A stretch of 64,000 nt of DNA from an uncultured Dehalococcoidia bacterium (GTDB taxonomy: Bacteria > Chloroflexota > Dehalococcoidia > Lucifugimonadales > CAJWUJ01). Shown piece by piece: positions 5,738-57,441 of the stretch (position 1 is the stretch's first letter; each line of letters starts with the position of its first letter). The translations under genes were made by a program, and so were the position numbers. The stretch is taken from the NCBI GenBank assembly GCA_913047625.1, contig CAJWUJ010000002.1, positions 2,743 through 66,742 of the forward strand. Reading direction: 5' to 3'. The notes beneath the pieces were generated by a model. It had not been told where the DNA came from and did not search any database. It saw only the letters and a list, made by a program, of their open reading frames with translations.

Positions 5738-6841
5738 TCATCTGATCATCGCTCTGGCACTGACTGGCCATATTACCTCAAGCCTATTGTTTCTCATCCC
5801 AAAAAGATGGGTATGAAGATTTACAGTGGTGTCGTTGTGACCTGGAATAAGTTCAACTTTGTCGCCAGGACGCAGCTGTTGAGACGTTTCAGATTCCAGG
5901 GTTATTGTTAGGTGCTCGTCAGATGCAGATGCAACTGTTAGCCCACTAGCTGACTTTATAATAGGGGGCCATTGGTCCGTTGAAAGAGCCTTCATTCCAC
6001 AATCGATTACTGCTCGGTCTTGTGTAGGCCTGCTTATAACGCTAGCTATTATAGTTCCGGCATTCACAAAGTCGGGTAGTACCCTGCCATATTGAGCATC
6101 CATGAAAACGTATGAACCAGGTTGGATTTCAGTAATATGGGAATAGGAACCCGTCATGTTGTAGGTTCCTGTTCCTCCAGCAGTTACAATTTCACAGGGA
6201 ATTTCTGCGGATCGTAAATGGTTAATGGCAGCAAGGGTTTTTTCCATGGAGTCTGAATCAAGGGATTTTCTTTTGTCATCATCTTCTACACTTTGAATAG
6301 CACCGTTGTAGGCGTGAATACCTAGGAACTGGAGTCCAGGAGCTGCTTCGACGGCCTGTGCCAGATCTATAACAGATTTGTCGGGTTCAACACCACATCT
6401 GTTTTGTCCTACATTTACATCGAGCAAAACTCCAATAGATACTTGGGCTGCATTGGCTGCTTCTGATAAATCAACAACGTTTGCGACATCATCCACAGTC
6501 ACTGACACCTTCGTGCTTTTTGCGAGTGCCATCAGCCGACGGATTTTAAAAGATCCAATGATCTCATACGTTATTAAGATATTATCTATTCCGTGAGAAG
6601 CCATAATTTCAGCTTCTCCTAGTTTTTGACAGCAGATACCGATAGCTCCAGCTGCAATTTGTTTTTTGGCTATATCAGGACTTTTATGGTGTTTCGTATG
6701 GGGACGAAGATTAATTGATTTCGACCTACAATAAGAAGCCATTTTCTCAATATTATTTTCCATTGCATCGAGGTCAATGATAAATGAAGGTGTATCGAGT
6801 TCTTCTTTTGGTGTGCCTAATGATGGTGTAAACTCTTGCAT
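5738..6841 (-). CDS. Fold-type III PLP enzyme, D-serine dehydratase (DSD1) / D-threonine aldolase family
   Basis: NLRPHTKHHKSPDIAKKQ (R-P-H-x-K-x-H-K PLP-lysine motif of the alanine-racemase-N/DSD1 family). C-terminal metal motif PGHND (5831-5845). Confidence 0.75.
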   Translation of the reverse strand: MQEFTPSLGTPKEELDTPSFIIDLDAMENNIEKMASYCRSKSINLRPHTKHHKSPDIAKKQIAAGAIGICCQKLGEAEIMASHGIDNILITYEIIGSFKIRRLMALAKSTKVSVTVDDVANVVDLSEAANAAQVSIGVLLDVNVGQNRCGVEPDKSVIDLAQAVEAAPGLQFLGIHAYNGAIQSVEDDDKRKSLDSDSMEKTLAAINHLRSAEIPCEIVTAGGTGTYNMTGSYSHITEIQPGSYVFMDAQYGRVLPDFVNAGTIIASVISRPTQDRAVIDCGMKALSTDQWPPIIKSASGLTVASASDEHLTITLESETSQQLRPGDKVELIPGHNDTTVNLHTHLFGMRNNRLEVIWPVSARAMIR

Positions 6842-10043: not shown

Positions 10044-10118
10044 TGGCTCCCCGAGTAGGATTCGAACCTACGACCCGCCGGTTAACAGCCGGCTGCTCTA
10101 CCACTGAGCTATCGGGGA
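10044..10118 (-). tRNA. tRNA-Asn (anticodon GTT), CCA encoded
   Basis: The reverse complement TCCCCGA TA GCTC AGTGGTA GAGC A GCCGG CTGTTAA CCGGC GGGTC GTAGG TTCGAAT CCTAC TCGGGGA G CCA folds as a perfect 75-nt cloverleaf. Confidence 0.95.
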
Positions 10119-12159: not shown

Positions 12160-12293
12160 TTATTGTTGGGTCCTCGGTCGATGAGGTAATAATCCTACTC
12201 CTTTTCTGCCAGAATGCTAAGGAAGCTGTTTTTCACGAAAGTTCACTCGGTAATTGTTTCTTGCGAACTCGGGGGTATTATAAGGACACCTAT

Positions 12294-12327
12294 AAACGGC
12301 GGTCAAGAATCCTTTTGTCAGCCGTTT
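12294..12327. promoter_or_regulatory. 7-bp inverted repeat (AAACGGC N20 GCCGTTT) in the divergent crotonase/hyuB intergenic region
   Basis: Read directly from the sequence. It lies about 100 nt upstream of the hyuB ATG. Function is unknown (operator or leader hairpin). Confidence 0.2.
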
Positions 12328-12430
12328 TCAAATAGCTCGGTCGCTAACTTCAGAATCAAGGTGAGTCTTGCCTATTTAATCTGACTCGTGAATAATGAGA
12401 TACAGGGTTCAGTGAGGATATGAGAGCGCT

Positions 12431-14146
12431 ATGGCTAGGACTATTGATCCAATAAAATTTGAAGTTATTCGAAATGCATTTGTAGAAGCAACTGAGGAAA
12501 TGGCAGCTGCCTTAAGGCGATCTGCATATTCCACTAATATAAAGACACGATGTGATTTTTCGTGTGCTTTGTTTGATTCGAAGCTTCGGCCTATAGCGCA
12601 GTCATTTTCACAGCCCAACCACTTAGGATCAATGGTTAAGACAGTACAAAAGTCGGTTGCTGCTTACAAGTCCGAACATTTAGGAGAAGGTGACGCCTTA
12701 GTTGTCAATTATCCCTATATAGGTGGTGTCCATCTAAACGACATTTGTCTTATAAGCCCTGTTTACTATCAAGGAACTTTGGTGGCATACGTTGCGAATT
12801 TAGCACACCATGTGGATGTCGGTGGTGGAGCACCAGCAAGTGTTGGCTCGTTTAAAGAGATCTATCAGGAGGGAGTTATTATTCCACCTGTCAAATTAGT
12901 TTCTTCAGGGAAAGTTGTGCAGGATGTCATGAACTTTATCATGGCGCAAGTTCGATCAAAAAAGGAAACAGCAGGAGATTTTCGTGCCCAAATAGCATCG
13001 AATAATACGGGGGCAAGGAGACTACATTCTTTACTAGATACGTCTGGTCTGGGAACTGTTTTGACTTATATGGATGAATTGATTGATTATGGGGCCCGAA
13101 GAACCAAGCAGGCCATAGCAAAACTTCCTCGCGGAGAGTACTCGGCAGAAGGATATCTGGATAATGATGGATTTACAGAATCGCCAGTGCTCTTGAAAGC
13201 CAAGGTCATCATTGAAGAGGATAGCGTAACCTTTGATTTATCTGGATCTGACCCACAACGCAATGCACCAGTTAATTCCACATATGCCCAGACTTATTCA
13301 GCGTGTGCTTTTGTCTTGAAGTGTATTATTGATCCCGATATCCCAGTCAATGAAGGATTCTATAGATATGTTAATGTCAATGCGCCAGAGGGAACCGTTG
13401 TTAACTGTGTTCATCCTTTCCCTGTAGTGGGAGGATGGGAAACTCAGGATCGACTGACTGACGTAATTATTAAGGCGTTGTCGGTACCTATGCCTAATGA
13501 AATGATTGCAGGCACCAAAGCAATGATTTGCCATTCTGGATTTGGAGGCCAAAGACCAAACTCTGGGGATTTTTATTGTTTCCTAGAAACCGTTGCAGGC
13601 GGGTTCGGTGGGAGAGCTAGTAGTGATGGTCCAGATGCTGTCCAGGCGCATGGACAAAACACTCAAAATGCACCGGTTGAAGAAACAGAAATCAACTACC
13701 CTGTTCGAATTTTACGGTATGAATTAGTAGATGATTCCGAAGGTCCGGGAACATTTAGAGGAGGCCTTGGAGTGAGGCGGGATTATCTTTTCCCTTATAC
13801 TCCTGCACTGTTTACCGTCTTAGCGGACAGAGACCGATGGGGTCCGTGGGGTCTTTTTGGTGGTGGCTCTGGGAAAAAGGCTTCCTATAGATACATCACT
13901 GCTACCGAAGAAATCGATTTGAGTTCAAAAACTACGGTTGACTTAAATGTCGGTGATGTTATGAGCTATGAGACTTGTGGTGGCGGCGGCTATGGGCCTC
14001 CAGATGCCCGTATCCCAGAATTGGTTCTTCGTGATGTTAGGGAAGGGAAAGTTAGCCACGAGAGAGCTAGATCTGTGTATAAAGTCGTAATCGATAGAGA
14101 AAACTGGACAATTGACGAACAAGCAACAAAGAAACTGCGTAACTAA
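12431..14146 (+). CDS. Hydantoinase B / oxoprolinase (HyuB) family protein, copy 1
   Basis: 571 aa. The N-terminus IDPIKFEVIRNAFVEATEEMAAALRRSAYSTNIKTRCDFSCALFD and the C-terminal GGGGYGPP motif are typical of HyuB / 5-oxoprolinase B-type subunits. Confidence 0.85.
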   Translation: MARTIDPIKFEVIRNAFVEATEEMAAALRRSAYSTNIKTRCDFSCALFDSKLRPIAQSFSQPNHLGSMVKTVQKSVAAYKSEHLGEGDALVVNYPYIGGVHLNDICLISPVYYQGTLVAYVANLAHHVDVGGGAPASVGSFKEIYQEGVIIPPVKLVSSGKVVQDVMNFIMAQVRSKKETAGDFRAQIASNNTGARRLHSLLDTSGLGTVLTYMDELIDYGARRTKQAIAKLPRGEYSAEGYLDNDGFTESPVLLKAKVIIEEDSVTFDLSGSDPQRNAPVNSTYAQTYSACAFVLKCIIDPDIPVNEGFYRYVNVNAPEGTVVNCVHPFPVVGGWETQDRLTDVIIKALSVPMPNEMIAGTKAMICHSGFGGQRPNSGDFYCFLETVAGGFGGRASSDGPDAVQAHGQNTQNAPVEETEINYPVRILRYELVDDSEGPGTFRGGLGVRRDYLFPYTPALFTVLADRDRWGPWGLFGGGSGKKASYRYITATEEIDLSSKTTVDLNVGDVMSYETCGGGGYGPPDARIPELVLRDVREGKVSHERARSVYKVVIDRENWTIDEQATKKLRN

Positions 14147-14157
14147 AGGAGATATTA

Positions 14158-15327
14158 ATGGATAGTAATGCCGATGCTGTCGTGATTGGGGGCGGGATTT
14201 TTGGAGCAAGTGCTGCTCATTTTTTGGCAAAGAAAGGTTTTGGCAACATAGTGCTTTTAGAGAAGCGTTCACTCGCTGCAGTGAGTACGGGGCATTCTGC
14301 AGCAAATGTACGTACCTACTACTCTAATCCTATGACTGTGCAGCTTGCTTGGAAAGCAGTGCAAATGTTTGAAAGATCAGAGGAGCTCTTAGGAGGAGAT
14401 TGTGGTTTTGATCAAATCGGTTTTCTCTTGTTAATTGATGAAGAGAATAGAATTCCAGGAAAACATATTCTGGAGATGGAATCAAGTAATGGTGTAGAAG
14501 TGAAAGACATGTCTGTAGAGGACTTGAAAGAATTGGCTCCTGATATGAATACAGAAGGCTTGATTGGTGGTATTTACGAGGTGAGGTCTGGCTATGCGGA
14601 TCCAATCAAGACTACAAAATCTTTGGCTTATAAAGCTAAGGATTGGGGACTAAAGGTTTACGAAGGAGTAGAAGCAACAGGGATCTCACTTGAGGGTGAT
14701 AGGGTCACGGGAGTAAGTACATCTGATGGATTTATAAGTACTCCGGTCGTTATAAATGCTGCTGGTCCTTGGGGTAATCAAGTTGGCAGTTGGGTTGGCC
14801 TAAATCACTCGATTCGATGGAGTAGAGAAACAGATATGGCCGTCCATTTACCTCCTAATTTTGGTCGAATGCCAGTGGTTTCAGATCCCAGTCTGGTATT
14901 TTATTATCGACCTCAAGGGCAAGGTGAACTGGTGGCAGGATTGGGATTTCCAAAAGAGATAGAACCAGTGGACATAAATAGCTACGATGAGACACTTGAT
15001 CCAGATAGTCGCCACAGGATTGAGCGTAAACTATTTGAGAGATTACCGGTTCTCAAAGACGCTAAATATTCACATGGTTGGGCTTCTCTCTACACAATTT
15101 CTGATGATTGGCATCCTTTGGTAGGGAAAGAGGATGGACTTCAGGGATATTATTCGTGTTTTGCTGGAAGTGGACATTGTTTCAAGTTAGGACCTCCTAT
15201 TGGTGAGGCATTGGCTGATATGATCATGGGCCAAGACACATCAATAGATATCACCGCTCTGAGACCAAGTAGATTCAAAGAAGGTGAACCTATGACTTCT
15301 GCCTGGGGTGGCGGAAATAGAGCGTAG
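14158..15327 (+). CDS. FAD-dependent oxidoreductase, DAO family (sarcosine oxidase beta / glycine-D-amino-acid oxidase-like)
   Basis: DAVVIGGGIFGASAAHFLAKKG dinucleotide fold. C-terminal GHCFKLGPPIGEALA. AAGGAG RBS. It starts 11 nt after the hyuB stop. Confidence 0.8.
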   Translation: MDSNADAVVIGGGIFGASAAHFLAKKGFGNIVLLEKRSLAAVSTGHSAANVRTYYSNPMTVQLAWKAVQMFERSEELLGGDCGFDQIGFLLLIDEENRIPGKHILEMESSNGVEVKDMSVEDLKELAPDMNTEGLIGGIYEVRSGYADPIKTTKSLAYKAKDWGLKVYEGVEATGISLEGDRVTGVSTSDGFISTPVVINAAGPWGNQVGSWVGLNHSIRWSRETDMAVHLPPNFGRMPVVSDPSLVFYYRPQGQGELVAGLGFPKEIEPVDINSYDETLDPDSRHRIERKLFERLPVLKDAKYSHGWASLYTISDDWHPLVGKEDGLQGYYSCFAGSGHCFKLGPPIGEALADMIMGQDTSIDITALRPSRFKEGEPMTSAWGGGNRA

Positions 15328-15391
15328 TCAGACAATTACCATTGTAGTTTTGGCGTCGCTAATTTACAGAATAGTTATCTAGGAGTGTGGT

Positions 15392-16987
15392 ATGTTTTTT
15401 AATTCGCGTCGATCGTCTGTCTTGAGTAAGCAGGGTATGGTTGCCACTAGCCAACCGCTAGCAGCTGTAGCTGGTTTAAAAATGTTGATGAACGGCGGAA
15501 ATGCGGTTGATGCAGCAGTTGCTGCAGCGGCTGCATTAGCAGTAGTAGAACCTATGTCAACAGGTATAGGCGGTGATGCCTTTTCGCTTGTTTGGATAGC
15601 AAAGGAAAAGAAAGTTTATGCACTCAATGCTAGCGGAAGGGCTCCACAGGCAGCATCAGTGAATGAGCTTATAGGACAAGGTCTTACGGAAATTCCTTCC
15701 ACAAGCCCTTATTCTGTTTCGATTCCAGGAACAGTAGATGGATGGATCGATATCTTAAATAAATTTGGGACAATGCCTATTAGTGAGGTGCTCCAACCCT
15801 CCATAGACTATGCAGAATCAGGTTTTCCTGTTTCTGAGTTGATAGCGTCCCAGTGGTCCGAAGGAATGGTTAAGCTTAATCAATTTCCATCTGGTAGAGA
15901 ATTGAGTATTGACGGGGAAGCTCCTCGTCATGGACAGACTATTCGGTTGCCTGAGCTTGGTACCGTTCTCAGAAACATTGCTGAAGGAGGACGAGACGCA
16001 TTTTATCGGGGTGAGGTAGCGCAAAAGATTGCAGATTTCATCCAGCAGATTGGAGGTTGGATTACAGTCGAGGATCTTGCGCAGCATACTTCAAACTGGG
16101 AACAACCTATTGCTACTGATTACAGAGGGCTAACTTGCTGGGAGTGTCCACCCAACGGACAGGGTCTTGCGGCTCTTATCGCTTTGAACATAGCGGAGGG
16201 ATTTGATTTCGGAAAACTTAGCCATGATAGTCCTGAAAGGTACCACCTTCTTATTGAAACCATGCATTTAGCATTTGCGGACGCACTTGCCTATATTGCC
16301 GATCCTAGCGCTGCACACGTGCCTACTGAGCGATTAATATCCAAAAATTATGCAGAGGAGCGTCGTTCTCTTATAGGGGATAAGGCATCTTTGCTACATG
16401 TCAATCCTGGCAATATTACCAATGATGGAGATACAGTTTATATCTCTGTTGTTGACGGTGAAGGCAATGCGTGTTCTTTTATCAACAGCTTATATCAGGG
16501 ATTTGGATCTGGGCTAGTTGTCCCAGGTACTGGTATTGCCCTTCAGAACAGGGCTGCTTTGTTTTCTTTGGTTCCAGACCATCCAAACGTATTGGCTCCA
16601 GGGAAAAGACCTTTCCACACTATCATCCCTGCGATGGCTACCAAGGATGGTGAATTATGTCTAAGTTATGGTGTTATGGGTGGATTTCAGCAAGCACAAG
16701 GTCATTTACAGGTTATTAATAACATTGTCGATTACGGTATGAAGCCTCAGCAATCTTTGGATGCCAGGCGGTTTAGTGTGGTTGTTGGTCAGGGAGTGGC
16801 ACTAGAAGACGATATGAATCCAGAGACGATCAATGCACTTCAAAAATTGGGGCACAATATATCTCTGGTAAGCGGGCATGAACGGATGATGTTTGGAGGA
16901 GCACAGCTTATCCAAAGAGATCCGGAATCCGGAGTTCTGTGGGGGGCATCAGAACCTAGAAAAGATGGTTGCGCTATTGGATTCTAA
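15392..16987 (+). CDS. Gamma-glutamyltransferase family protein (no recognisable signal peptide)
   Basis: GMVATSQPLAAVAGLKMLMNGGNAVDAAVA N-terminal pattern, autoprocessing/nucleophile Thr in NDGDTVYISVVD, and GVMGGFQQAQGH. The N-terminus MFFNSRRSSVLSKQG lacks a hydrophobic leader. Confidence 0.85.
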   Translation: MFFNSRRSSVLSKQGMVATSQPLAAVAGLKMLMNGGNAVDAAVAAAAALAVVEPMSTGIGGDAFSLVWIAKEKKVYALNASGRAPQAASVNELIGQGLTEIPSTSPYSVSIPGTVDGWIDILNKFGTMPISEVLQPSIDYAESGFPVSELIASQWSEGMVKLNQFPSGRELSIDGEAPRHGQTIRLPELGTVLRNIAEGGRDAFYRGEVAQKIADFIQQIGGWITVEDLAQHTSNWEQPIATDYRGLTCWECPPNGQGLAALIALNIAEGFDFGKLSHDSPERYHLLIETMHLAFADALAYIADPSAAHVPTERLISKNYAEERRSLIGDKASLLHVNPGNITNDGDTVYISVVDGEGNACSFINSLYQGFGSGLVVPGTGIALQNRAALFSLVPDHPNVLAPGKRPFHTIIPAMATKDGELCLSYGVMGGFQQAQGHLQVINNIVDYGMKPQQSLDARRFSVVVGQGVALEDDMNPETINALQKLGHNISLVSGHERMMFGGAQLIQRDPESGVLWGASEPRKDGCAIGF

Positions 16988-17060: not shown

Positions 17061-18620
17061 TTAATGAACCACTCTTCCGGGCACAGCCCCGGTATGTGAG
17101 CCATTTTTGATTACTTGTACACCGTTTACAAAGACGTGGTGTATTCCCTCTGCAAATTGTTTCGGGTCTTTTAAAGTGGCGGGAGCATGCACCTTTTCAG
17201 GATCAAAAACTACTATGTCTGCCTTCATGCCATCTCGTAAGATTCCCCTATCCTTCAATCCTAGCCTTTGTGCAGGGAACGAAGACATTTTGCGAATAGC
17301 TTCTCTAAGTTCAAGGTGGGCATTTTGGCGTACGAAAACATCAAGGATAATAGGGAAAGTCCCGTAGGTGCGGGGACTTGGATGTTCTCCAAGTAATACG
17401 GCATCACTACCAATCATTGCAGCTGGATGTCTATAAAAGTCAGCGATTGACATTTGATTTCCACCAGCTGCTACATAATTAGTAGCCAGGTTTTCTTCAA
17501 TTAAAATATCACAAACGACATCAGCTGGATCCTTACCGGTTGCGTCTGCAATTTCGCCCAATGACCATCCGTCCCATTTAATGTTGTCATGGTCGTGGAG
17601 ATGAGTGATCCACATGTCATTCCAAGTGGGTGCTCGGGGCTTAAGCTCCTTTACAATTCTTTGACGTTCGTCAGGAGACTTGAGCCGTTCTAGTAGGCTG
17701 GTTGGTCCACCTTCCTGGGCCCATTGAGGCATGAGGATGATAAGCCGAGTACTCCCGTAAATGTAGGGATAAGAATCAAAAGTAAGGTCAGTACCTTCTG
17801 ATAAAGCTTCGTCTATTAGCTCGATTTGTTTGGCGAAAGGACCACGTGAAGGTAGTCGATGGAAGAAGTGAGATATATGAAGAGGAACTCCACTTTTGTT
17901 CGAAATTTCGATAGCTTCTCTGAACGGATCCAAGAACTTATCCCCGAGCGCATAACGAACATGAGTAGCATAAAACCCGCCCAATTTATTAACTTCTTTT
18001 GAGAGTTCTATGAGCTCCTCAGTACTTGCATAACTGCCAGGAGGATAGTCAAGGCCAGTTGAAATTCCTACAGCGCCCTCCTCCATTCCTTGGTGAATTA
18101 GATATTTCATTTTTTTCATTTCGTCAGTAGTGGGAGGACGATTATCCCATCCCATTGCTGAAATTCGTAGTGCAGAGTTACCCATTACATAGGCAAAGTT
18201 ACAGGAGACTTTGTTGTCCAAATGTCCTAAGTACTCACTAACACTACTCCATTCCTGTTGTAGTTCAGGGTTTCCATCTAGTCCCGCATTAAGCACGCGG
18301 AAAGCAGTCAGGTCATCTTTTGACAAAAATGGCGCATAAGAACAACCGTCTATACCAATGAGTTCGGTAGTGATTCCTTGAGTGACTTTCGGTTCATGTA
18401 GAGGCTTATCTAAGACAACCATTCCTGAATGAGCATGCATGTCTATAAATCCTGGGCAGACGATAAGTCCAGAGGCGTCTAAGGTTTCTGTTGCCGATAT
18501 GGAAGAAACATCACCCCTGATGATTTTTACCGTGTTGTCTGTCACACCAACGGAAGCGTAGAAACCGAGATTCCCAGTCCCGTCAACAATAAACCCGTTT
18601 TTTATTAGTAGATCAAGCAT
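17061..18620 (-). CDS. N-acyl-D-amino-acid deacylase (D-aminoacylase) family amidohydrolase
   Basis: DLLIKNGFIVDGTGN...PGFIDMHAHS (H-x-H), about 520 aa, with a D-aminoacylase-like domain layout. Confidence 0.75.
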   Translation of the reverse strand: MLDLLIKNGFIVDGTGNLGFYASVGVTDNTVKIIRGDVSSISATETLDASGLIVCPGFIDMHAHSGMVVLDKPLHEPKVTQGITTELIGIDGCSYAPFLSKDDLTAFRVLNAGLDGNPELQQEWSSVSEYLGHLDNKVSCNFAYVMGNSALRISAMGWDNRPPTTDEMKKMKYLIHQGMEEGAVGISTGLDYPPGSYASTEELIELSKEVNKLGGFYATHVRYALGDKFLDPFREAIEISNKSGVPLHISHFFHRLPSRGPFAKQIELIDEALSEGTDLTFDSYPYIYGSTRLIILMPQWAQEGGPTSLLERLKSPDERQRIVKELKPRAPTWNDMWITHLHDHDNIKWDGWSLGEIADATGKDPADVVCDILIEENLATNYVAAGGNQMSIADFYRHPAAMIGSDAVLLGEHPSPRTYGTFPIILDVFVRQNAHLELREAIRKMSSFPAQRLGLKDRGILRDGMKADIVVFDPEKVHAPATLKDPKQFAEGIHHVFVNGVQVIKNGSHTGAVPGRVVH

Positions 18621-18805: not shown

Positions 18806-19312
18806 ATGAATTGGGCACAGGCGATAATTGCATCTTTAAAAGCGCAGGCTATTTCCATGATAGCCTTTGTTCCTGACGTCAGTATTGATAAAGTGACAAG
18901 ATTGATGGAAAAAGATCCCTTTTTTACTGTAGTTGCTGCAACCAGAGAGGAAGAAGCAATTGGCATAGCTTCTGGAGCTTACGCGGTTGGGAGAAATGCA
19001 GCAGTCTTTATGCAATCGAGTGGGTTTGGAAACTCCGTAAATGCTATCGCGAGCTTGTGTATGCCTTGCCGGATTCCAATTCCCATGTTCATCAACTTAC
19101 GAGGACAATTAGGAGAGTTTAACATTGCTCAGGTTGCTATGGGTCAAGCTACCCGTCCTATATTGGACGTTTTAGGATTGCCTCACTATGTATTAAATGC
19201 CTCTGATGATATCGAGAAAGTGACAACTGGAGCATTGCAGCTGTGTTATGGAAGCCGTCAACCACTGGCGATCTGTCTGACTCCTTTGTTAACTGGAGGA
19301 AAACTTGTTTAG
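18806..19312 (+). CDS. comD: TPP-dependent sulfopyruvate/phosphonopyruvate decarboxylase, alpha (ComD-like) subunit
   Basis: 168 aa. REEEAIGIASGAYAVGRNAAVFMQSSGFGNSVNAIASL is the TPP pyrimidine-binding half. The size and split architecture match ComD. Confidence 0.7.
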   Translation: MNWAQAIIASLKAQAISMIAFVPDVSIDKVTRLMEKDPFFTVVAATREEEAIGIASGAYAVGRNAAVFMQSSGFGNSVNAIASLCMPCRIPIPMFINLRGQLGEFNIAQVAMGQATRPILDVLGLPHYVLNASDDIEKVTTGALQLCYGSRQPLAICLTPLLTGGKLV

Positions 19313-19859
19313 GTATGAAGCAACCCAGATGATCCTTGGGTGTCTTCAGGATCAGCCTCTCGTGACTAATTTAGGACCTACTACTGACGAGCTTTGGGCA
19401 GCAGGGCATCGCGATCGGAATTTTTACACTTTTGGTTCTATGGGTCTCTGTTCTTCTATAGCGCTGGGAATGGCATTGTCTTTATCAGAGAAAGTGATTT
19501 CACTTGATGGTGACGGATCCCTGCTTATGAACCTTGGAACGATTGCTTCCATTGGTAGAGAACAACCTTCTAATCTTATTGTAGTGGTGTGGGACAACGA
19601 AGAATGGGCTCAAACGGGTCGTCAAAAAAGCCATACTGCATTTGGCACAAATTTGGAAGCCGTTGCTCGTTCTTGTAATATAACTCATACCAAGACAGTA
19701 ACTGACTTAACACAGTTTAAATCGGTATTTAAAGAGTCACTAACAACCGATGGTCCTTGGTTTATAGTTGCAAAGATTGAGGAAGGGGAACTATACCCCT
19801 TAATGCCTCAGGAACCTGATGCTACTCTTCTTAGATTCAGAGCGACATACCTCTCATAG
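19305..19859 (+). CDS. comE: TPP-dependent sulfopyruvate/phosphonopyruvate decarboxylase, beta (ComE-like) subunit
   Basis: 184 aa. GSMGLCSSIALGMAL...LDGDGSLLMNLG...VVWDNEEW is the TPP diphosphate-binding GDGS..N motif. TTG start with GGAGGA 4 nt upstream, overlapping the comD stop by 8 nt. Confidence 0.7.
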   Translation: MFRYEATQMILGCLQDQPLVTNLGPTTDELWAAGHRDRNFYTFGSMGLCSSIALGMALSLSEKVISLDGDGSLLMNLGTIASIGREQPSNLIVVVWDNEEWAQTGRQKSHTAFGTNLEAVARSCNITHTKTVTDLTQFKSVFKESLTTDGPWFIVAKIEEGELYPLMPQEPDATLLRFRATYLS

Positions 19860-21263: not shown

Positions 21264-24140
21264 TTGCAATTAAGGCTTGGACCAAGTCGTAGCTTGGAAC
21301 TGCTGGACACGCATAAGAAAACCCTCATCGCGGCGATATTGTTGCTTGATGCTTGTATTGGTCTGCTATACGGAGCTGGATCAGTAGCGTGGTCAGGCCT
21401 TTTTGCCGGAGATCTCAAATGGATGTTCCAGTCCTTTGAAATGTTTATCGGTGGATTTATCTTTATCCACTCCTTCTTCGAATACGTTAGGCGCACAAAA
21501 CCAGTAGTTGCTTTCGGCACTCTGATAATTCTCACTACAGTATTAATTGTATTAATCCTGCAGTTACTCCTCTCGAGCTTGGGTAAGTCGAGCACAGTGA
21601 ACTACAATCTTTCCTCAGTAGGTATGAGTGGTTTATATTGGACCGCTGCATATTTAAGTGTTGCCGCGGGACTAGCACTCACCTACAAAGTCCAGCGGTT
21701 CGGAAATTTTGCTCAAGCTGAAATGATGCTGATTGGTGCATATGTTGCCATTACACTTATGTGGTCCGAGTACTTTTTCCCGATTTCAAGCGCACCGGAG
21801 GACGGGAAACTTGATTGGAGTCTACTCATTTGCGCTGGACTGGCTGCGTTTTTACTCACGGGCTTTGTTGGCGTAGTGATTGACCGTTTCGTATACAGGA
21901 AATTCCGTAAAAAAGCAGCTTCTCCCCAAGTCATGATGATTGCATCTCTTGGTATTGCAATGGTTATCCGAGCATTCTTATACATGAGGTTTTCTGCTGG
22001 CACATTTCGTTTTGTGCCGGACACTGATTGGAGATTGGTAGAGTCTAAGTTTTCAGTTCCAACAAAGTTAGTGCAGTTTTCTATCGGGGATCGAGGAGAA
22101 CTTAGCATACTGAGAATCTCTGAGACTGCCAATGCATACGGTTTTGCTTTTATGAAAGTTGCTCTTGTGGTTGGAGTAATAGCATCGGTGGTCATATTGA
22201 TGTTCATTTTGTACAAGACTCGGTTGGGAAGGAAAATGAGAGCTGTATCAGATAATTCAGATCTTGCAGCATCAAGCGGTATTGATGTGGAACGAGTACA
22301 TTCGACGAGTGCATTTTTATCAGCCGGTATTTCGGGTCTTGGTGGGGCAATGCTTGCAGGGGTGTTGCCGATAAATCCAGAGCTGGGCATTACGTTGCTT
22401 CTGCCAGCCTTTGCAGTTCTTATTCTAGGTACAATCGGTTCAATCCCTGGGGTTTTTATTGGAGCCCTGGTGGTTGGATTAGTAAGGTCAACTTCAGAGC
22501 CATTTTTAATCGGGATTGGTAATGCCCTAGATAGACCTACAATGAGTGGATTTGCTGAGGTTATGCCTTTTGTATTTTTAATTGCTGTTCTATTACTTCT
22601 GCCGAGGGGAATAGGGGATGTACTGACCCAGTGGAATATAGATCGTATGAAAAAAAGAGATCACAGTAAATATACTATTGGTCTTGGGAGTGGTACTACT
22701 GGAAGAGAAATATTTGGATCGATACGTGATAATTTTGCGTCCACTATTACTATACTGAACAACCAGTGTAATCTGGTCTTTGCAAATGTTCGAAGCAAGC
22801 TTATATGGATACTCAGAAAGGTGGCGTATCTGGGTAATGTTTTTAGGTTAGTAATAGCATTGTTTAGTAGACTGCTGGTGAAAACATCGTCCACCTTCGG
22901 AACTACCAAAAGAGAAACAGAGCGTGGGTCGTGGGTTACATTTGGGATCCTTTTTTTTATCTTGGTGCTGATAGTGCTTTTGCTGCCCAGTGCTACAGCT
23001 TTAACTAAGATAATGCAAGTAGCAAGAGTGGTTTCCTTACTAGGGATTTTTAGCTTACTTGCCATATCATTGAACTTGCATACTGGGATCACGGGAATGA
23101 CTAACTTTGGTGTAATCTTTTTTGCAGGACTAGGAGCGATCATAGTTGGGATCCTATGTGCTCCAGTTGAAACAAATGGGTATGGATGGGCTCCTTGGCA
23201 GGCCACTATCCTGGCAGTTTGCATATCGGGCTTAGCAGGATGGTTACTTGCTTACCCTACTGCTAGGTTACGTATGGACTATTTTGCTATCGTGACCATT
23301 TCATTAGGAGAAATACTCAGTATTGCACTTCGGTCAGAACCGTTATTACGGGCTGGGACTGTTACATCTGCTATAGGAATATCGCAATACACCCGTCCAT
23401 TTGAAGATTGGTGGAATTCAGGTGTGTCAAAAACTGTAGGAAGCTCGCTTGGACTTCCAGGTGTGGCTCCGTATGTCCTTGTCATTGCCCTGATGTGTGT
23501 AATTTGCGTACCGCTCGTCTGGTGGCTTTTAAACACTGTCTTGCGCTCTCCATGGGGGCGTATTTTGCGGTCGATAAGGGAAGATGAAGAAGTTAGTCAG
23601 CATCATGGACACAGTGTACTCATTCATAAAGCGAGTAGTTTAGCGATGGGAGCGGCAATAGCTGGCCTTGCAGGAGCCATATGGGCTTGGCTGAACACAG
23701 GGATTTTTCCTGAATTTATGAATCCGGTGCGTTCTACATTTTTAGTCTGGGCTGCATTTATAGTAGGAGGAAGAGGAAACAACCGCGGTATGATTATCGG
23801 TGCATTTCTTATCGTCATAGTAGATTTCTTTTTTAATGTTATGGTTGTTGCGAGAGGAGGTGCCAGTCTTCCTTTTCATGGAATAGTTACATATATCGAT
23901 AGTGCTTTTAGATGGTTCATTGTGGATTTGGGAGGTTTGGTTTGGTCGGATATGTCGATTGACCAGGTTTTTAAACGAGGAATTATCACTGCTAATCTTG
24001 AATATCTTAAATTAGCCTTAATTGGCGGTGTTATAGTGGGGACATTACAGTTAGCGCCCAAAGGTTTGTTGCCAGAAATTCCTAGCAGACCCGAACGTTC
24101 CGTTGTTCAAAGTAGTGATAGAGGAAAGACTGATGAATAG
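21264..24140 (+). CDS. Fused branched-chain-amino-acid-type ABC permease (LivH-like domain + LivM-like domain in one polypeptide); start codon uncertain
   Basis: Single 958-codon ORF. The LivH-like core runs from GLYWTAAYLSVAAGLALTYKVQRFGNFAQAEMMLIGAYVA to AVSDNSDLAASSGIDV...LLLLPRGIG. After a linker of roughly 100 to 140 aa comes the LivM-like core (LNLHTGITGMTNFGVIFFAGLGA...ILRSIREDEEVSQHHG...GLAGAIWA). About 110 aa of extra N-terminal TM segments are present if the TTG at 21264 is used; ATG 21423 is an alternative. Confidence 0.75.
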   Translation: MQLRLGPSRSLELLDTHKKTLIAAILLLDACIGLLYGAGSVAWSGLFAGDLKWMFQSFEMFIGGFIFIHSFFEYVRRTKPVVAFGTLIILTTVLIVLILQLLLSSLGKSSTVNYNLSSVGMSGLYWTAAYLSVAAGLALTYKVQRFGNFAQAEMMLIGAYVAITLMWSEYFFPISSAPEDGKLDWSLLICAGLAAFLLTGFVGVVIDRFVYRKFRKKAASPQVMMIASLGIAMVIRAFLYMRFSAGTFRFVPDTDWRLVESKFSVPTKLVQFSIGDRGELSILRISETANAYGFAFMKVALVVGVIASVVILMFILYKTRLGRKMRAVSDNSDLAASSGIDVERVHSTSAFLSAGISGLGGAMLAGVLPINPELGITLLLPAFAVLILGTIGSIPGVFIGALVVGLVRSTSEPFLIGIGNALDRPTMSGFAEVMPFVFLIAVLLLLPRGIGDVLTQWNIDRMKKRDHSKYTIGLGSGTTGREIFGSIRDNFASTITILNNQCNLVFANVRSKLIWILRKVAYLGNVFRLVIALFSRLLVKTSSTFGTTKRETERGSWVTFGILFFILVLIVLLLPSATALTKIMQVARVVSLLGIFSLLAISLNLHTGITGMTNFGVIFFAGLGAIIVGILCAPVETNGYGWAPWQATILAVCISGLAGWLLAYPTARLRMDYFAIVTISLGEILSIALRSEPLLRAGTVTSAIGISQYTRPFEDWWNSGVSKTVGSSLGLPGVAPYVLVIALMCVICVPLVWWLLNTVLRSPWGRILRSIREDEEVSQHHGHSVLIHKASSLAMGAAIAGLAGAIWAWLNTGIFPEFMNPVRSTFLVWAAFIVGGRGNNRGMIIGAFLIVIVDFFFNVMVVARGGASLPFHGIVTYIDSAFRWFIVDLGGLVWSDMSIDQVFKRGIITANLEYLKLALIGGVIVGTLQLAPKGLLPEIPSRPERSVVQSSDRGKTDE

Positions 24141-27918: not shown

Positions 27919-29646
27919 ATGACAAGTGGAACAACTGATGCAGCAAGACTAGAGGTTTTAAAGAATAGCCTTGAGGGTATTGCTGACGGCATGGCTATGA
28001 CAGTGCTTAGGACAGCACGGTCGGCAGTTGTCAGGCAATCAACTGACTTTTCAACTGCCATACTAAGCGCTAATGGAGAATTAATTGGCCAGGGATTTTG
28101 TTTACCTCCTCACATGGGCGGTATGGTTCCTGCACTTCGGGCAGTGGTTGCTCGATACGAAGGCCAAATATTCCCAGGAGATATGTTTGCCCTTAATGAC
28201 CCATATGAAGGAGGTAGCCATCTGCCTGACATATTCATTTTTAAGCCTATGTTTCGGAACGATACCATAGTGGCTTATTTGTGTGCTATGGCTCATCAAA
28301 CTGATATTGGAGGGAGAGTAGCGGGTGGTAATGCATGCGATTCTTCTGAAATTTATCAAGAAGGACTCAGGATTCCACCAGTGAAGCTCTATGATGAAGG
28401 AATACCCAACGAGACAGTATTTCGCATTTTAGAAAAAGCGGTTCGTGTTCCAGATATTGTGATGGGGGATATTGCTGCTCAGATAGCAGCTATTCACTAT
28501 GGTGAAGGGGAATTCTTGAAAGTAGTGGATCGCTATGGTCTGGAAAACTTTCAGCAATATGTTGAAGAACTGGTTGATTATACTGAATCATTAACACGAG
28601 CTGCCATTCGGAAAATGCCAGATGGTTCATGGACTTGGAGTGATTATATTGATGATGACGGGTTTGATTCAGGAACAATCACTATTACCGCGACCGTAAC
28701 AAAAAAAGAGGATGAACTTTTTGTAGACTTTACTGGAACTTCACCTCAGTGTAAGGGGGCAATTCAGCCAGTATTTGCAACTACAAAAGCAGTAGTTTAT
28801 GCAGCTCTTAAAACAATGCTAGGAAACGAAATTCCCAATACATCGGGATATTTTCGCCCAGTGACAATCACGGCTCCGGAAGGAACGTTTGTCAACCCAA
28901 TTTTACCAGCGCCTGTTGCAGCCAGAACATTGGGTCTCATACGGATCGTTAATGCCGTTTTTGGGGCGTTTGCTCAGATGGCTCCAGACACAGTATATGC
29001 TGCCTGTGCTGGTTCAGATCTAGGACTAGGTATGGCTGGATATGACAAATCTAAGGTTCCATGGAAGCCTTGGGTTCTATTGGAATTCCATAATGAACCA
29101 GGTAGAGGAGGTTTCCCAGATAGAGATGGTCATGACGGAGTCGCAGCCGGTATTGTCAACCAAGCTAATATTCCAGTCGAAACTATTGAAGCAGAACACC
29201 CCCTAAAGGTATTGGAGTACAACTTTGTTTCTGATACCGAGGGAGCCGGCATGTTCAGGGGTTCAATGGGGATGACTCGATCTTGGGAATACACAATGTC
29301 TGATACGGTGCTACAGGTGCGTAGTGACCGACAGAAACATGCCCCTTATGGCTTGCATGGTGGCCAAGAACCGAGACTAGGAACTATTTCAGTCAAGAAA
29401 AACGGTGAAGAAAAGCCCATGCCTTCAAAATTCCTAACTGACATGGGGGTTGGTGACACAATCAGCGTGGTGTGGCCAGGTGGAGGTGGTTGGGGCGACC
29501 CTTCCCAAAGAGATCCGGAGATGGTCTTATGGGATGTGATTGAGGAGAAAGTTTCATTGGAAAGGGCAAAGGCTGTATATCGCGTTGCTATTACTTCTGA
29601 TGGAACCAGTATTGATTGGGCTGAAACCAAACAGATACGCGGCTAA
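27919..29646 (+). CDS. Hydantoinase B / oxoprolinase (HyuB) family protein, copy 2
   Basis: 575 aa, collinear with copy 1 (LEVLKNSLEGIADGMAMTVLRTARSAVVRQSTDFSTAIL...PGGGGWGDP). GAGGAG RBS 7 nt upstream. Confidence 0.85.
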   Translation: MTSGTTDAARLEVLKNSLEGIADGMAMTVLRTARSAVVRQSTDFSTAILSANGELIGQGFCLPPHMGGMVPALRAVVARYEGQIFPGDMFALNDPYEGGSHLPDIFIFKPMFRNDTIVAYLCAMAHQTDIGGRVAGGNACDSSEIYQEGLRIPPVKLYDEGIPNETVFRILEKAVRVPDIVMGDIAAQIAAIHYGEGEFLKVVDRYGLENFQQYVEELVDYTESLTRAAIRKMPDGSWTWSDYIDDDGFDSGTITITATVTKKEDELFVDFTGTSPQCKGAIQPVFATTKAVVYAALKTMLGNEIPNTSGYFRPVTITAPEGTFVNPILPAPVAARTLGLIRIVNAVFGAFAQMAPDTVYAACAGSDLGLGMAGYDKSKVPWKPWVLLEFHNEPGRGGFPDRDGHDGVAAGIVNQANIPVETIEAEHPLKVLEYNFVSDTEGAGMFRGSMGMTRSWEYTMSDTVLQVRSDRQKHAPYGLHGGQEPRLGTISVKKNGEEKPMPSKFLTDMGVGDTISVVWPGGGGWGDPSQRDPEMVLWDVIEEKVSLERAKAVYRVAITSDGTSIDWAETKQIRG

Positions 29647-53973: not shown

Positions 53974-55356
53974 ATGACTCAAAGTGCTGACTTAACTCTT
54001 GGGGCAATCAGTAACTTGATTCAGCAGAAAGAATTATCTGTTACTGAGGTTGTTAATAATTATCTGGATCGAATTAAACAATTTGAGTCTACTTTGAAGG
54101 CATGGGTATCGGTTGATGAAGAAAATGCTTTAGCCAAAGCCAGTGTTTTGGATAAAGCAGTAAGAGGCGATAATAATCGAAGCTTGTTACACGGAATACC
54201 ATTTGGTGTAAAGGATATTTTCTGGGTCAAAGACTCTGTAACGTCTGCTGGGTCTCCTATCTATCGTGATTTTGTACCAAGGCAACATGCTACGGTTGTC
54301 GGCAACCTTTTATCGGCTGGTGCGGTTTTCCTTGGGAAGACAGTTACTACAGAATTTGCAACAGGAGATCCACCTCAGACAGTAAATCCATGGAATCCGT
54401 TACATACTCCTGGGGGATCTAGTAGTGGATCGGCTGTAGCTGTTTCCACTGGGATGTGTTCCTTTGCTTTGGGTTCTCAGACAAGTGGATCAGTATTGCG
54501 TCCAGCTTCGTATAACGGAATTGTAGGGTTTAAACCCACTTTTGGTCTGCTTAGTAAATTTGGGATGTTTTCAGCATCATGGTCTATGGATACTGTCGGC
54601 GTGTTGTGCCGATCAGTACAAGATTCGTCCTATGCTTTTCATTACATGGCTAGCCATGACCAAAGAGATCCTAGTAGCAGCGCTAAACACGTCACTTTGG
54701 CCGGTAAAGACATAACTGCACCTGATAACTTGCGCCCTCGCCTCGGCGTTGTCAAAGGTATGTTTAAGGATGCTTCTGACCACATAGCTTGGGCTAATTT
54801 CGAGTCAGTAGTTCAAAAGGCTGCAAAGAATGGGGCTACAGTTATTGAATTTGATCCTTCGGATATCTTTGAACGAGCGAGAATGGCCCAATACATTATC
54901 CAAAGATCTGAGTTTGCTTCTTATCAAGAAGAAAACTATAACAAATGGCCCCATCTTTATAGTCCTGTTAGTAGAAGTTGGGTTGAACACGGCAAGGTAT
55001 TTACCGGTGTTGATTACATTAATGCTCAGCGTATCAGGAGTTTGTTTATCGAAGAGATGAGAAGTTTTTTCTCTCAGGTCGATGTACTTTTGACTCCGTC
55101 TACCCCAGCTGCTGCTCCGAAGGATCTCTCGAAGACGGGCAATCCACTGTTTCAGGGTCTTTGGACCTTGAGTGGAGCTCCAGCTATCAGTATCCCTTCA
55201 GGGTTATCCGACCAAGGTATGCCTTTGGGTTTACAAATACTAGGTAATTGGTATGATGAAAATCAGTTGTTAGTGATAGCAAGATGGTTCGAAGAGTTAT
55301 TGAATCTTCATTTAATTCCTCCACTAGTAGTACGTAAAACAAACGAAGGAGCCTAA
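53974..55356 (+). CDS. Amidase (amidase-signature family, GatA-like)
   Basis: GIPFGVKD (Lys), GGSSSGSAVAV and GSQTSGSVLRPAS (Ser-cisSer-Lys triad context). Confidence 0.85.
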   Translation: MTQSADLTLGAISNLIQQKELSVTEVVNNYLDRIKQFESTLKAWVSVDEENALAKASVLDKAVRGDNNRSLLHGIPFGVKDIFWVKDSVTSAGSPIYRDFVPRQHATVVGNLLSAGAVFLGKTVTTEFATGDPPQTVNPWNPLHTPGGSSSGSAVAVSTGMCSFALGSQTSGSVLRPASYNGIVGFKPTFGLLSKFGMFSASWSMDTVGVLCRSVQDSSYAFHYMASHDQRDPSSSAKHVTLAGKDITAPDNLRPRLGVVKGMFKDASDHIAWANFESVVQKAAKNGATVIEFDPSDIFERARMAQYIIQRSEFASYQEENYNKWPHLYSPVSRSWVEHGKVFTGVDYINAQRIRSLFIEEMRSFFSQVDVLLTPSTPAAAPKDLSKTGNPLFQGLWTLSGAPAISIPSGLSDQGMPLGLQILGNWYDENQLLVIARWFEELLNLHLIPPLVVRKTNEGA

Positions 55357-56433: not shown

Positions 56434-57441
56434 TTATTCGCCCCAAACCTCTATAAACAGTCTAAGGAAGTTCTCTCCTAGAATTTTCTTAATATCCACT
56501 TCGGAATAGCCTCGGTCAGCCAGTCCTCTTGCAATATTTATGATGTCAGTGGCAGATTCCAAATTTTTAACTTTAGAAAAAGGGAAATTGTTCAGAGATG
56601 CTTTTTCTTTCTCTTCCTTGCTTCTAGTATGAGTACCTTGGATTTTTTCTAGCCAGTCAAAGAATTCCTTTGTGTGACCGTATGTGAAATCAATTCCCAA
56701 ACCTACGTGATCAATGCCAACCTTTTCAATGAGCACTTCGAGTGAATCTAGGTAGTTGTCCAGTGTGCAGTGATTCTGGCATGGAAGAAATAAGGGAAAT
56801 GCGTTAGTTCCAACAACACCTCCTTTTTCAGCTACCAATTTAAGAGCAGTGTCAGGGTGATTTCTAGGATGTTGGTAATGACTTCTAGCTCCCGCATGTG
56901 TGAACGCAACAGGTTGATCAGATTGTTCTATTGTATCTATTACTGTTTGGTCTCCGACATGAGAAAGGTCAATAAGTATCTTAAGCCGATTCATTTCCTT
57001 TACTGCCTCTCGCCCAAAAAAACTCAGTCCGCCATCGCGCGCTTCATAACAGCCCGTACCTAGCAGGTTTCGTTCGTTATAGGTTAGCTGCATGATCCGG
57101 ACGCCCAGTGTATGGAACAGTTCTAGTCTCGCAAGTTCATTTTCTATGGGGGTCGAGTTTTGCCATCCCAGTATGATTCCACTGCGGTTTTCTTTTTTTG
57201 CTTTTCTAATATCTGTTGCTGATCTAATGGGGATAATATGCTGGGAGTGCGTACGAAATCGATCAGGCCACTTGGTTATGCCTGCTATTTCCTGCAAAAA
57301 GTTCTCGTATACCGCGATTGTTGCATTAATCGCAGTTACTCCTCCTTCATGAAGGTTTTGGAATACTCCAGGGTCATCCCAGTTGCTGGGATTGCATGCG
57401 TCAATGACAATTGCTTCACTAAAGAGTTTATCTATATCCAT
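56434..57441 (-). CDS. Peptidase M19 (renal/membrane dipeptidase) family homolog with a degenerate binuclear-metal site
   Basis: Collinear with DPEP1-type proteins (LGVRIMQLTYN, LIDLSHVG, FTHAGARS, GLGIDF). The H-x-D motif reads C-N-P (VIDACNP, 57388-57402) and the bridging-Glu position reads Q (LGWQNS). Confidence 0.75.
   Translation of the reverse strand: MDIDKLFSEAIVIDACNPSNWDDPGVFQNLHEGGVTAINATIAVYENFLQEIAGITKWPDRFRTHSQHIIPIRSATDIRKAKKENRSGIILGWQNSTPIENELARLELFHTLGVRIMQLTYNERNLLGTGCYEARDGGLSFFGREAVKEMNRLKILIDLSHVGDQTVIDTIEQSDQPVAFTHAGARSHYQHPRNHPDTALKLVAEKGGVVGTNAFPLFLPCQNHCTLDNYLDSLEVLIEKVGIDHVGLGIDFTYGHTKEFFDWLEKIQGTHTRSKEEKEKASLNNFPFSKVKNLESATDIINIARGLADRGYSEVDIKKILGENFLRLFIEVWGE

Follow-up and report, generated by a model that had tools for sequence, protein, structure and literature searches.

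How does a HyuB-type enzyme, whose gene usually stands beside that of a HyuA partner, come to be encoded in an operon-like cluster that has no hyuA at all? The question is raised by a 64,000-nucleotide (nt) stretch of contig CAJWUJ010000002.1 from an uncultured Dehalococcoidia bacterium ("the window" is this whole stretch), in which three genes follow each other closely: hyuB1, encoding a Hydantoinase_B protein; a gene for a DAO-family flavoenzyme that would use flavin adenine dinucleotide (FAD); and a gene for a leaderless member of the gamma-glutamyltransferase (GGT) family. The three products are referred to as HyuB1, DAO and GGT, and their genes collectively as the trio (coordinates are in Table 1). 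The answer is that HyuB1 is not an orphan at the level of the genome: it appears to be one because of where the window was cut. The enzyme system is ordinary; it is the arrangement of its genes that is unusual.

Within the window, the absence of HyuA is genuine. The first-pass annotation, made from the window alone, noted that no HyuA gene adjoins hyuB1, and this holds for the entire 64 kb: no Hydantoinase_A domain was found by Pfam or NCBIfam in the scanned open reading frames (ORFs) of at least 150 amino acids (aa), and tblastn of eight Pfam-confirmed HyuA proteins against the full sequence returned nothing below E = 0.4, neither a HyuA gene nor a remnant of one. The same annotation regarded HyuB1 as an orphan, a view that would fail if a co-conserved HyuA gene turned up just outside the window, and one did turn up there. 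The left edge was read by looking up a window-encoded protein near that edge together with 10 kb of flank. JGI contig Ga0211585_10000107, in which the window is bases 5255-69254 (0 mismatches in the 12,510 nt compared), continues leftward into a hyuB3-hyuA operon whose two genes share one boundary base, an arrangement common to three independent assemblies, including the NCBI metagenome-assembled genome (MAG) GCA_002717085.1. The hyuA gene, on the same strand, stops 574 nt short of window base 1, which puts its end 13,004 nt upstream of the HyuB1 start codon. Its product carries intact all three of the ATP-site motifs (DVGGTFTD, DMGGTT and GADPGP) that the caprolactamase study PMC8453981 defines for HyuA-type subunits, and it is 57-70% identical to the HyuAs encoded beside HyuB1-like genes in other genomes. 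Past the right edge, no Hyu gene was found within 7.8 kb of the window's end. In the 77 kb examined there are three HyuB paralogs for one HyuA, and the single hyuA, departing from the usual organization, is neither adjacent to nor co-operonic with hyuB1, having an adjacent hyuB of its own.

Is HyuB1, then, a decaying copy? Four observations together make it appear to be a functional extra beta-subunit paralog, neither decaying nor partnerless: 1) Its metal tetrad, D42/H101/D104/H126, aligns with D41/H99/D102/H124 of CapB, the beta subunit of the Pseudomonas jessenii caprolactamase CapAB (6YRA), with which it aligns end to end. 2) It keeps 229 of the 234 near-invariant columns of its family, as against 214 of 234 for HyuB3. 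3) In comparison with a 95%-identical relative, the ratio of nonsynonymous to synonymous substitution rates (dN/dS) is 0.035 at a dS of 0.68. 4) Its relatives are coupled to HyuA. HyuB1 and HyuB3 are 61.8% identical and are sisters in neighbour-joining trees.

The fourth of these points can be given numbers. HyuB1 homologs run into the thousands, and the closest (63-72% identical) are found in Chloroflexota, Poribacteria, Alpha- and Gammaproteobacteria and Latescibacterota, with sponge MAGs contributing many of these. Among 35 genome loci (individually designated by L numbers below) with a HyuB at least 60% identical to HyuB1, HyuA is directly adjacent in 23; another five, from Dehalococcoidia, have the order HyuB-HyuB'-HyuA; a contig end is too near to judge in four; and only three (L014, L031 and L038) have no HyuA within 10 kb.

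It is on this evidence that we take the trio to be, on balance probably, a clade-specific operon that combines an extra HyuB copy, served by the HyuA encoded in trans, with a flavoenzyme resembling proline dehydrogenase beta chains and SoxB and with a cytoplasmic GGT-family amidase. Gene content and sequence make the trans-encoded HyuA the most likely partner of HyuB1. The contrary proposal dispenses with HyuA altogether: HyuB1 would be a metal-dependent amidase or lactamase acting by itself, and the trio would encode a new HyuB-DAO-GGT module that handles cyclic amides or gamma-glutamyl amines. The trio without an adjacent HyuA has been retained under strong purifying selection in the window and in its relatives L044 and L141, and the imbalance between HyuB and HyuA copies, like the three loci that have no HyuA nearby, could be read the same way. 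However, a HyuA of the matching clade is encoded 13 kb upstream on the same strand, the orthologs at 63-72% identity are coupled directly with HyuA, and, of the two paralogs, it is HyuB1 that has stayed the more conservative. The literature searched yielded no HyuA-independent HyuB, the caprolactamase study attributes the ATP-dependent activation step to the alpha subunit (PMC8453981), and GGT is missing from all the other related loci, so that we consider a stand-alone HyuB1 decidedly unlikely. A bolder version, which is nearly as unlikely, makes HyuB1 a HyuA-independent metallo-hydrolase in a clade-specific HyuB-DAO-GGT pathway (to which the D-aminoacylase-like enzyme encoded next door would also belong) whose substrates, glutamyl-type cyclic or gamma-linked amides, would come from marine dissolved organic matter; in a related idea one HyuA would serve interchangeable HyuB1, HyuB3 and perhaps HyuB2, a further HyuB encoded in the window.

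Several points weigh against the trans-HyuA reading that we prefer: 1) The three loci without a nearby HyuA are joined by a pair of HyuB genes in L047, likewise with no HyuA near them. 2) At least three lineages have retained the trio with no HyuA gene beside it. 3) The family used for counting conserved columns was chosen by similarity to HyuB1, which biases the count in its favor. 4) The sister relation of HyuB1 and HyuB3 has only moderate bootstrap support (64%). 5) Binding of HyuB1 to HyuA is predicted from sequence and gene context. 6) The functional link of GGT to the other two proteins is weak because the association is confined to a narrow clade.

Table 1. Features of the trio locus and its surroundings. 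Positions are those of the window; negative positions lie to the left of its first base.
Feature	Coordinates	Strand	Remarks
HyuB3	-4405 to -2672	+	577 aa; HyuA-adjacent
HyuA	-2672 to -573	+	699 aa; Hydant_A_N, Hydantoinase_A and Hydant_A_C domains
Divergent intergenic region, presumed promoter region of the trio	12160-12430	.	271 nt; between ECH/CoA-transferase genes (-) and hyuB1 (+)
HyuB1	12431-14146	+	571 aa; PF02538 Hydantoinase_B, profile 1-519/519, E 3.5e-175
DAO-family FAD oxidoreductase	14158-15327	+	389 aa; PF01266 DAO, E 1e-55
Leaderless GGT-family Ntn hydrolase	15392-16987	+	531 aa; PF01019 G_glu_transpept, E 9e-154
Amidohydro_3 protein, D-aminoacylase / N-acyl-D-glutamate-deacylase-like	17061-18620	-	PF07969; convergent with the trio
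HyuB2, second lone Hydantoinase_B	27919-29646	+	PF02538, E 9e-159; different HyuB clade, not in the trio

How the parts might work together can be sketched from what is known of the family and, for the later steps, from gene order. HyuA, an ASKHA ATPase, would activate a cyclic amide (a substrate of the lactam, hydantoin or 5-oxoproline type) by phosphorylation and would pass the intermediate to HyuB, whose Asp-His-Asp-His metal site would hydrolyse the ring. In caprolactamase, the HyuA-type subunit activates the substrate with ATP and a tunnel leads to the HyuB-type metal site; the enzyme is a tetramer, (alpha-beta)2, and its beta subunits are in mutual contact (PMC8453981). HyuB1 might use the trans-encoded HyuA either as an alternative beta subunit or in a beta/beta' heterodimer with HyuB3, within a complex of the (alpha-beta)2 type. 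The amine or imino acid produced by ring opening would be oxidized by DAO, as the conserved DAO-HyuB(-HyuA) adjacency suggests. More tentatively, GGT and the D-aminoacylase-like enzyme might cleave other amide-linked, probably glutamyl, derivatives that feed the same pool.

The likeness to caprolactamase has its limits. The HyuA of this genome has the three ASKHA ATP motifs, but HyuB1 scores 294 bits against the CapB equivalog NF050157, for which the cut-off is 1000, and so is no caprolactamase ortholog; and capB lies next to capA, but 13 kb separate hyuB1 from a hyuA that has its own hyuB. For complexes of paralogous subunit copies the superfamily offers a precedent in acetophenone carboxylase, with its paralogous alpha and alpha' subunits (PMC8453981); there, however, it is the ATP-binding HyuA-like subunit that is duplicated, and here it is the metal-binding HyuB, in a putative complex.

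Duplication of HyuB is not confined to this genome. It has occurred independently in several lineages (L008; L022, L024, L026, L028 and L034; L062 and L063), each time generating HyuB-HyuB'-HyuA clusters with a single HyuA, and such tandem copies around one HyuA suggest either beta/beta' hetero-complexes or interchangeable beta subunits. Other loci vary the theme: 1) A gammaproteobacterial MAG (L029:7798-14003) has the order HyuA-HyuB-HyuA, with HyuAs of two clades (65% and 43% identical to a Poribacteria HyuA) flanking one HyuB. 2) Two tandem HyuB2-type genes lie near a 65% GGT relative in L047 (13197-16748), with no HyuA in view; one of them is split into pieces of 415 and 154 aa, probably by a frameshift, and there are several transposase genes on the far side of the GGT gene. 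3) A further lone HyuB of 599 aa, followed by an Aminotran_3 gene, is found a few kb from a HyuB-HyuA pair in L045 (14979-18106; the locus of a 72% HyuB1 relative), an echo of the pairing of lactamase with aminotransferase that reportedly occurs in caprolactam degradation.

How far do the three genes of the trio constitute a transcription unit? ORF calling agrees to the base with the first-pass annotation, whose description of three same-strand genes with short gaps and good ribosome-binding sites is confirmed: 11 nt separate hyuB1 from the DAO gene and 64 nt separate the latter from the GGT gene, and the respective ribosome-binding sites are GAGGA, 13 nt 5' of the ATG, for HyuB1, AGGAG at 8 nt for DAO and AGGAG at 7 nt for GGT. 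Neither gap contains a terminator-like site according to a simple scan. The trio looks like an operon, and dN/dS ratios of 0.035 for HyuB1, 0.049 for DAO and 0.035 for GGT relative to the 95%-identical relative (dS 0.5-0.7) indicate that strong purifying selection acts on all three genes. The presumed promoter region upstream of hyuB1 offers promoter-like hexamers at 12368-12396 (+ strand, 9 of 12 matches) and 12306-12277 (- strand, 11 of 12 matches), with the proviso that such hexamers are no more numerous in this region than expected from shuffled sequence; an Rfam scan of the same region found no family and no regulatory RNA. The exact proteins of the trio are also found on Tara Oceans marine contigs and in MAG GCA_002717085.1. 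NCBI carries HyuB1 as MBH74376.1 ("5-oxoprolinase [Dehalococcoidia bacterium]"), DAO as MBH74375.1 ("hypothetical protein", CL896_01095) and GGT as MBH74374.1 ("gamma-glutamyltransferase").

The association of DAO with HyuB is a recurrent one. Where a DAO gene had 1.5 kb or more of flank on each side, HyuB was scored within 3 kb: it is there for 5 of 6 DAO relatives above 50% identity, 2 of 5 at 40-50%, 9 of 12 at 33-40%, and none of 14 at 33% or less; for relatives of at least 33% identity with both flanks usable, this amounts to 16 of 23. DAO relatives at 55-66% identity lie directly upstream in contiguous DAO-HyuB-HyuA clusters (L049, L055 and L057; L054 and L058, of the same set, run into a contig end). 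In L050 (10001-14900) a 66% DAO relative is followed after 4 nt by a fused HyuA::HyuB of 1241 aa, with the architecture of the N-methylhydantoinase 7HK5. More distant arrangements include HyuA-HyuB-DAO-(MR_MLE)-HyuB-HyuB'-HyuA (L061-L064), HyuA-HyuB-DAO (L069, L070, L080, L084, L085 and L091) and, on short contigs, HyuB-DAO as all that is visible (L071, L073-L075, L077 and L086). The contiguous DAO-HyuB-HyuA triad is thus present in L049, L050, L055 and L057, and also on the Ti plasmid pTiA6 considered below; the window's own order, HyuB-DAO-GGT with hyuA 13 kb off, is not of this kind. Judged from these gene neighborhoods, the HyuB-DAO link appears to be old and widespread, with HyuA often in view. 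(DAO relatives on plasmids were also considered and are uninformative: they are at most about 30% identical and occur in contexts of the electron-transfer-flavoprotein/dimethylglycine type.)

What DAO oxidizes is less readily read from its sequence. Its closest solved relative is the beta chain of Pyrococcus horikoshii L-proline dehydrogenase (1Y56_B; E 4e-48, residues 4-382 aligned), but identity is only roughly one third, and no gene for a partner of the proline dehydrogenase alpha type lies beside the window's DAO gene. DAO also falls below every NCBIfam cut-off, scoring 89.5 against 529 for soxB (TIGR01373) and 71.2 against 480 for monomeric sarcosine oxidase (TIGR01377).

These scores bear on one conceivable assignment, the creatinine route (creatinine to N-methylhydantoin to N-carbamoylsarcosine to sarcosine), in which HyuB1 would be an N-methylhydantoinase beta subunit and DAO a sarcosine oxidase. 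In that route, too, a Hyu enzyme goes together with an oxidase of the DAO family; among solved structures HyuB1 comes closest to the fused HyuA::HyuB N-methylhydantoinase 7HK5 (E 1e-86, with the caprolactamase beta subunit 6yra_B following at E 3e-71); and JGI labels the homologs "N-methylhydantoinase B" and "sarcosine oxidase subunit beta". Many of the close HyuB relatives are from sponge-symbiont MAGs, and creatinine use has reportedly been discussed for sponge symbionts; a creatinase-like M24 gene lies near a 69% DAO relative in L051. However, the automatic labels are generic KEGG-type names, the DAO scores are far short of the sarcosine-oxidase cut-offs, and no creatininase, creatinine deaminase or isochorismatase-type N-carbamoylsarcosine amidase domain was found among the window ORFs scanned. 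Membership of the creatinine pathway is rejected on these grounds; as an explanation of the locus it is highly improbable. The judgment of the first-pass annotation that the cluster fits neither the creatinine route nor the textbook gamma-glutamyl cycle is upheld.

A closer formal parallel is provided by the octopine-type Ti plasmid pTiA6, on which an FAD oxidoreductase-HyuA-HyuB cluster lies beside an ABC transporter, in the same three-family logic as the DAO-HyuB-HyuA of the window's relatives. HyuA and HyuB are 44% and 37% identical to their Ti counterparts. Against this, identity between the Ti oxidoreductase and the window's DAO is only 23%, and the Ti cluster has its HyuA in the operon and no GGT. 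The pTiA6 triad is presumably agaE-agaF-agaG, reported to act in agropinic and mannopinic acid catabolism (Lyi et al. 1999). By agaEFG, agropinic acid, a lactam (an N-substituted pyroglutamate), would be opened and then oxidatively cleaved. The creatinine route and the FAD oxidoreductase-HyuA-HyuB cluster of pTiA6 are the precedents for proposing that DAO oxidizes the ring-opened amine.

Other genes recur around the DAO-Hyu clusters: enzymes of the enolase superfamily (MR_MLE), D-aminoacylase-like Amidohydro_3 proteins and S15 X-Pro dipeptidyl peptidases (L062:9130-10284; L069; L070; L097; L101; L105; L055:5939-7942; L014:11408-13249). Such neighbors hint that the substrates may be akin to proline, dipeptides or N-acyl-D-amino acids. 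Amidohydro_3 is also the family of the gene convergent with the trio, homologs of which (31-33% identical) directly follow DAO relatives in L097, L101, L105 and L112; its best PDB matches are a D-aminoacylase (1m7j, E 4e-67) and an N-acyl-D-glutamate deacylase (3gip, E 4e-58). As a recurrent neighbor of DAO relatives, it possibly belongs to the same pathway as the trio.

The role of GGT is on shakier ground. The protein itself is readily classified: it passes the cut-off of TIGR00066 (413 bits against 358), fails that of the periplasmic E. coli-type NF007187 (269 bits against 990), and finds its best PDB match, over its full length, in 2nlz of Bacillus halodurans (E 2e-142). The predicted Thr nucleophile is residue 348, the T of GDTVYISVVD, from which the processed small-subunit chains align. 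The N-terminus, MFFNSRRSSVLSKQGMVATSQPLA, is followed at once by the conserved beginning of the large subunit and is not preceded by any hydrophobic segment, which bears out the earlier remark that a signal peptide is missing. The 120 best homologs have a median length of 531 aa and the same leaderless N-terminus, so that lack of a leader appears to be the norm for this subfamily and no peculiarity of the locus. 2NLZ, named "cephalosporin acylase", likewise has no signal peptide, and its small subunit starts with the Thr nucleophile. B. subtilis YwrD is presumably another leaderless GGT-like protein. Physiological substrates in the 2NLZ subclass are poorly defined, and the tie of the window's GGT to HyuB and DAO is limited to one narrow clade.

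That clade, of marine Dehalococcoidia, comprises relatives at 88-95% identity. The trio is kept in L044 (the 95% relative), with identical gap lengths, and in L141 and a Logan contig (DAO 88%, GGT 90% identical); L141 also keeps the convergent Amidohydro_3 gene and a split enzyme of the thiamine pyrophosphate (TPP) type that lies beyond it, at a dS of 1.3-1.9, so that the trio has been retained past synonymous saturation. Synteny of the three genes thus holds within this narrow clade and is lost outside it. It is possible, if rather unlikely, that GGT (and perhaps the D-aminoacylase-like gene) is a mere neighbor that arrived by local rearrangement, the functional unit being HyuB and DAO (plus HyuA). 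None of 36 HyuB-centered and roughly 80 DAO-centered related loci carries GGT; its relatives at 64-65% identity (L047 and L046, the latter a SAR202 single-cell genome) have MFS and thiolase neighbors, and at 85% identity (L048) a class-V aminotransferase gene precedes GGT instead; and the DAO-GGT gap, at 64-88 nt, is longer than the HyuB-DAO gap of 11-13 nt. What speaks for a closer connection is that adjacency and orientation have persisted in L141 despite its divergence, that the DAO-GGT gap has no terminator-like site, and that its ribosome-binding-site segment is conserved. A widespread DAO-GGT pair was also entertained and is rejected: the 64-65% and 85% GGT relatives have no adjoining DAO or HyuB. 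Of the proposal that the trio defines a distinct module, there survives the recurrent HyuB-DAO association and the conservation of the trio within its clade; set against it, HyuA is present in most loci with enough flank, and GGT is clade-specific. Literature searches on SAR202 hydantoinases, on clusters of hydantoinase B with FAD oxidoreductases and on agropinic acid returned nothing describing a HyuB-DAO-GGT module.

If GGT does belong with the others, what might the common substrate be? One variant of the trans-HyuA reading, specified at the level of substrates, is glutamate salvage: HyuA/HyuB would open 5-oxoproline or N-substituted pyroglutamates, GGT would cleave gamma-(D/L)-glutamyl amides, the D-aminoacylase-like enzyme would act on N-acyl-D-glutamate, and DAO would oxidize the released amine, D-amino acid or imino acid. 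The NCBI name of HyuB1, the TIGR00066 score of GGT and the resemblance of the Amidohydro_3 protein to an N-acyl-D-glutamate deacylase all fit, as do the racemase/epimerase-type MR_MLE enzymes and X-Pro peptidases among the DAO-Hyu neighbors, and the D-serine-dehydratase-like enzyme, M19 dipeptidase and two more DAO paralogs that the window encodes. The presumed opening of an N-substituted pyroglutamate by agaEFG points the same way. Yet the scheme is drawn wholly from family names; HyuB1 has no match to the NCBIfam 5-oxoprolinase equivalog, DAO is only distantly related to the pTiA6 oxidoreductase, and the GGT link is clade-specific. As a full account of the pathway it is unlikely.

The trans-HyuA reading leaves another HyuB of the window without a ready partner. 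HyuB2 is 34.5% identical to HyuB1, retains its metal tetrad, and has as neighbors a 3-hydroxyisobutyrate-dehydrogenase-like gene and, on the opposite strand, an SDR gene. Relatives in its clade adjoin a second clade of HyuA, no member of which was found between -5.2 kb and +71.8 kb. HyuB2 is the more genuinely partnerless HyuB here.

Some other features of the window may be mentioned. The split TPP enzyme (+ strand) consists of an N-domain gene at 18806-19312 (168 aa) and a C-domain gene at 19305-19859 (184 aa) that overlap by 8 nt, and it adjoins the Amidohydro_3 gene in L141 as well; it resembles the two-subunit sulfopyruvate or phosphonopyruvate decarboxylases. An ORF of 958 aa at 21264-24140 (+), with two BPD_transp_2 stretches, is apparently a fused LivH/LivM-type permease in an ABC transporter operon of the branched-chain-amino-acid type; public gene callers also give it as 958 aa. 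Enzymes of kinds typical of the catabolism of D-amino acids and small amides are plentiful in the window (5738-6841, 57498-58610, 60607-61803, 56434-57441 and 53974-55356), among them a protein with Ala_racemase_N and D-ser_dehydrat domains, the two DAO paralogs (glycine-oxidase-like), the Peptidase_M19 dipeptidase and an amidase. It also holds F420/LLM oxidoreductases and many SDR, ECH and CoA-transferase III paralogs. The sole Rfam match in the window is a tRNA gene at 10047-10118 (-; RF00005, 73 bits), between SDR and CoA-transferase genes.

What, finally, does this locus have to say about its family? In the first place, it is a case in which an apparently orphan subunit can be an artefact of a window boundary. 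Secondly, it ties a DAO flavoenzyme to lactamase-type HyuA/HyuB enzymes across marine, sponge-associated and soil bacteria. Thirdly, the repeated duplication of HyuB around a single hyuA hints at an ATP-activating subunit that may be shared by several hydrolase subunits; if one HyuA does work with many HyuBs, this would be a modular "one ATPase, many hydrolases" design, which has not been described for the family. Either the DAO-HyuAB link or the duplication of HyuB could guide the discovery of substrates in a large and poorly characterized family, and in organisms that are thought to degrade recalcitrant marine organic nitrogen.

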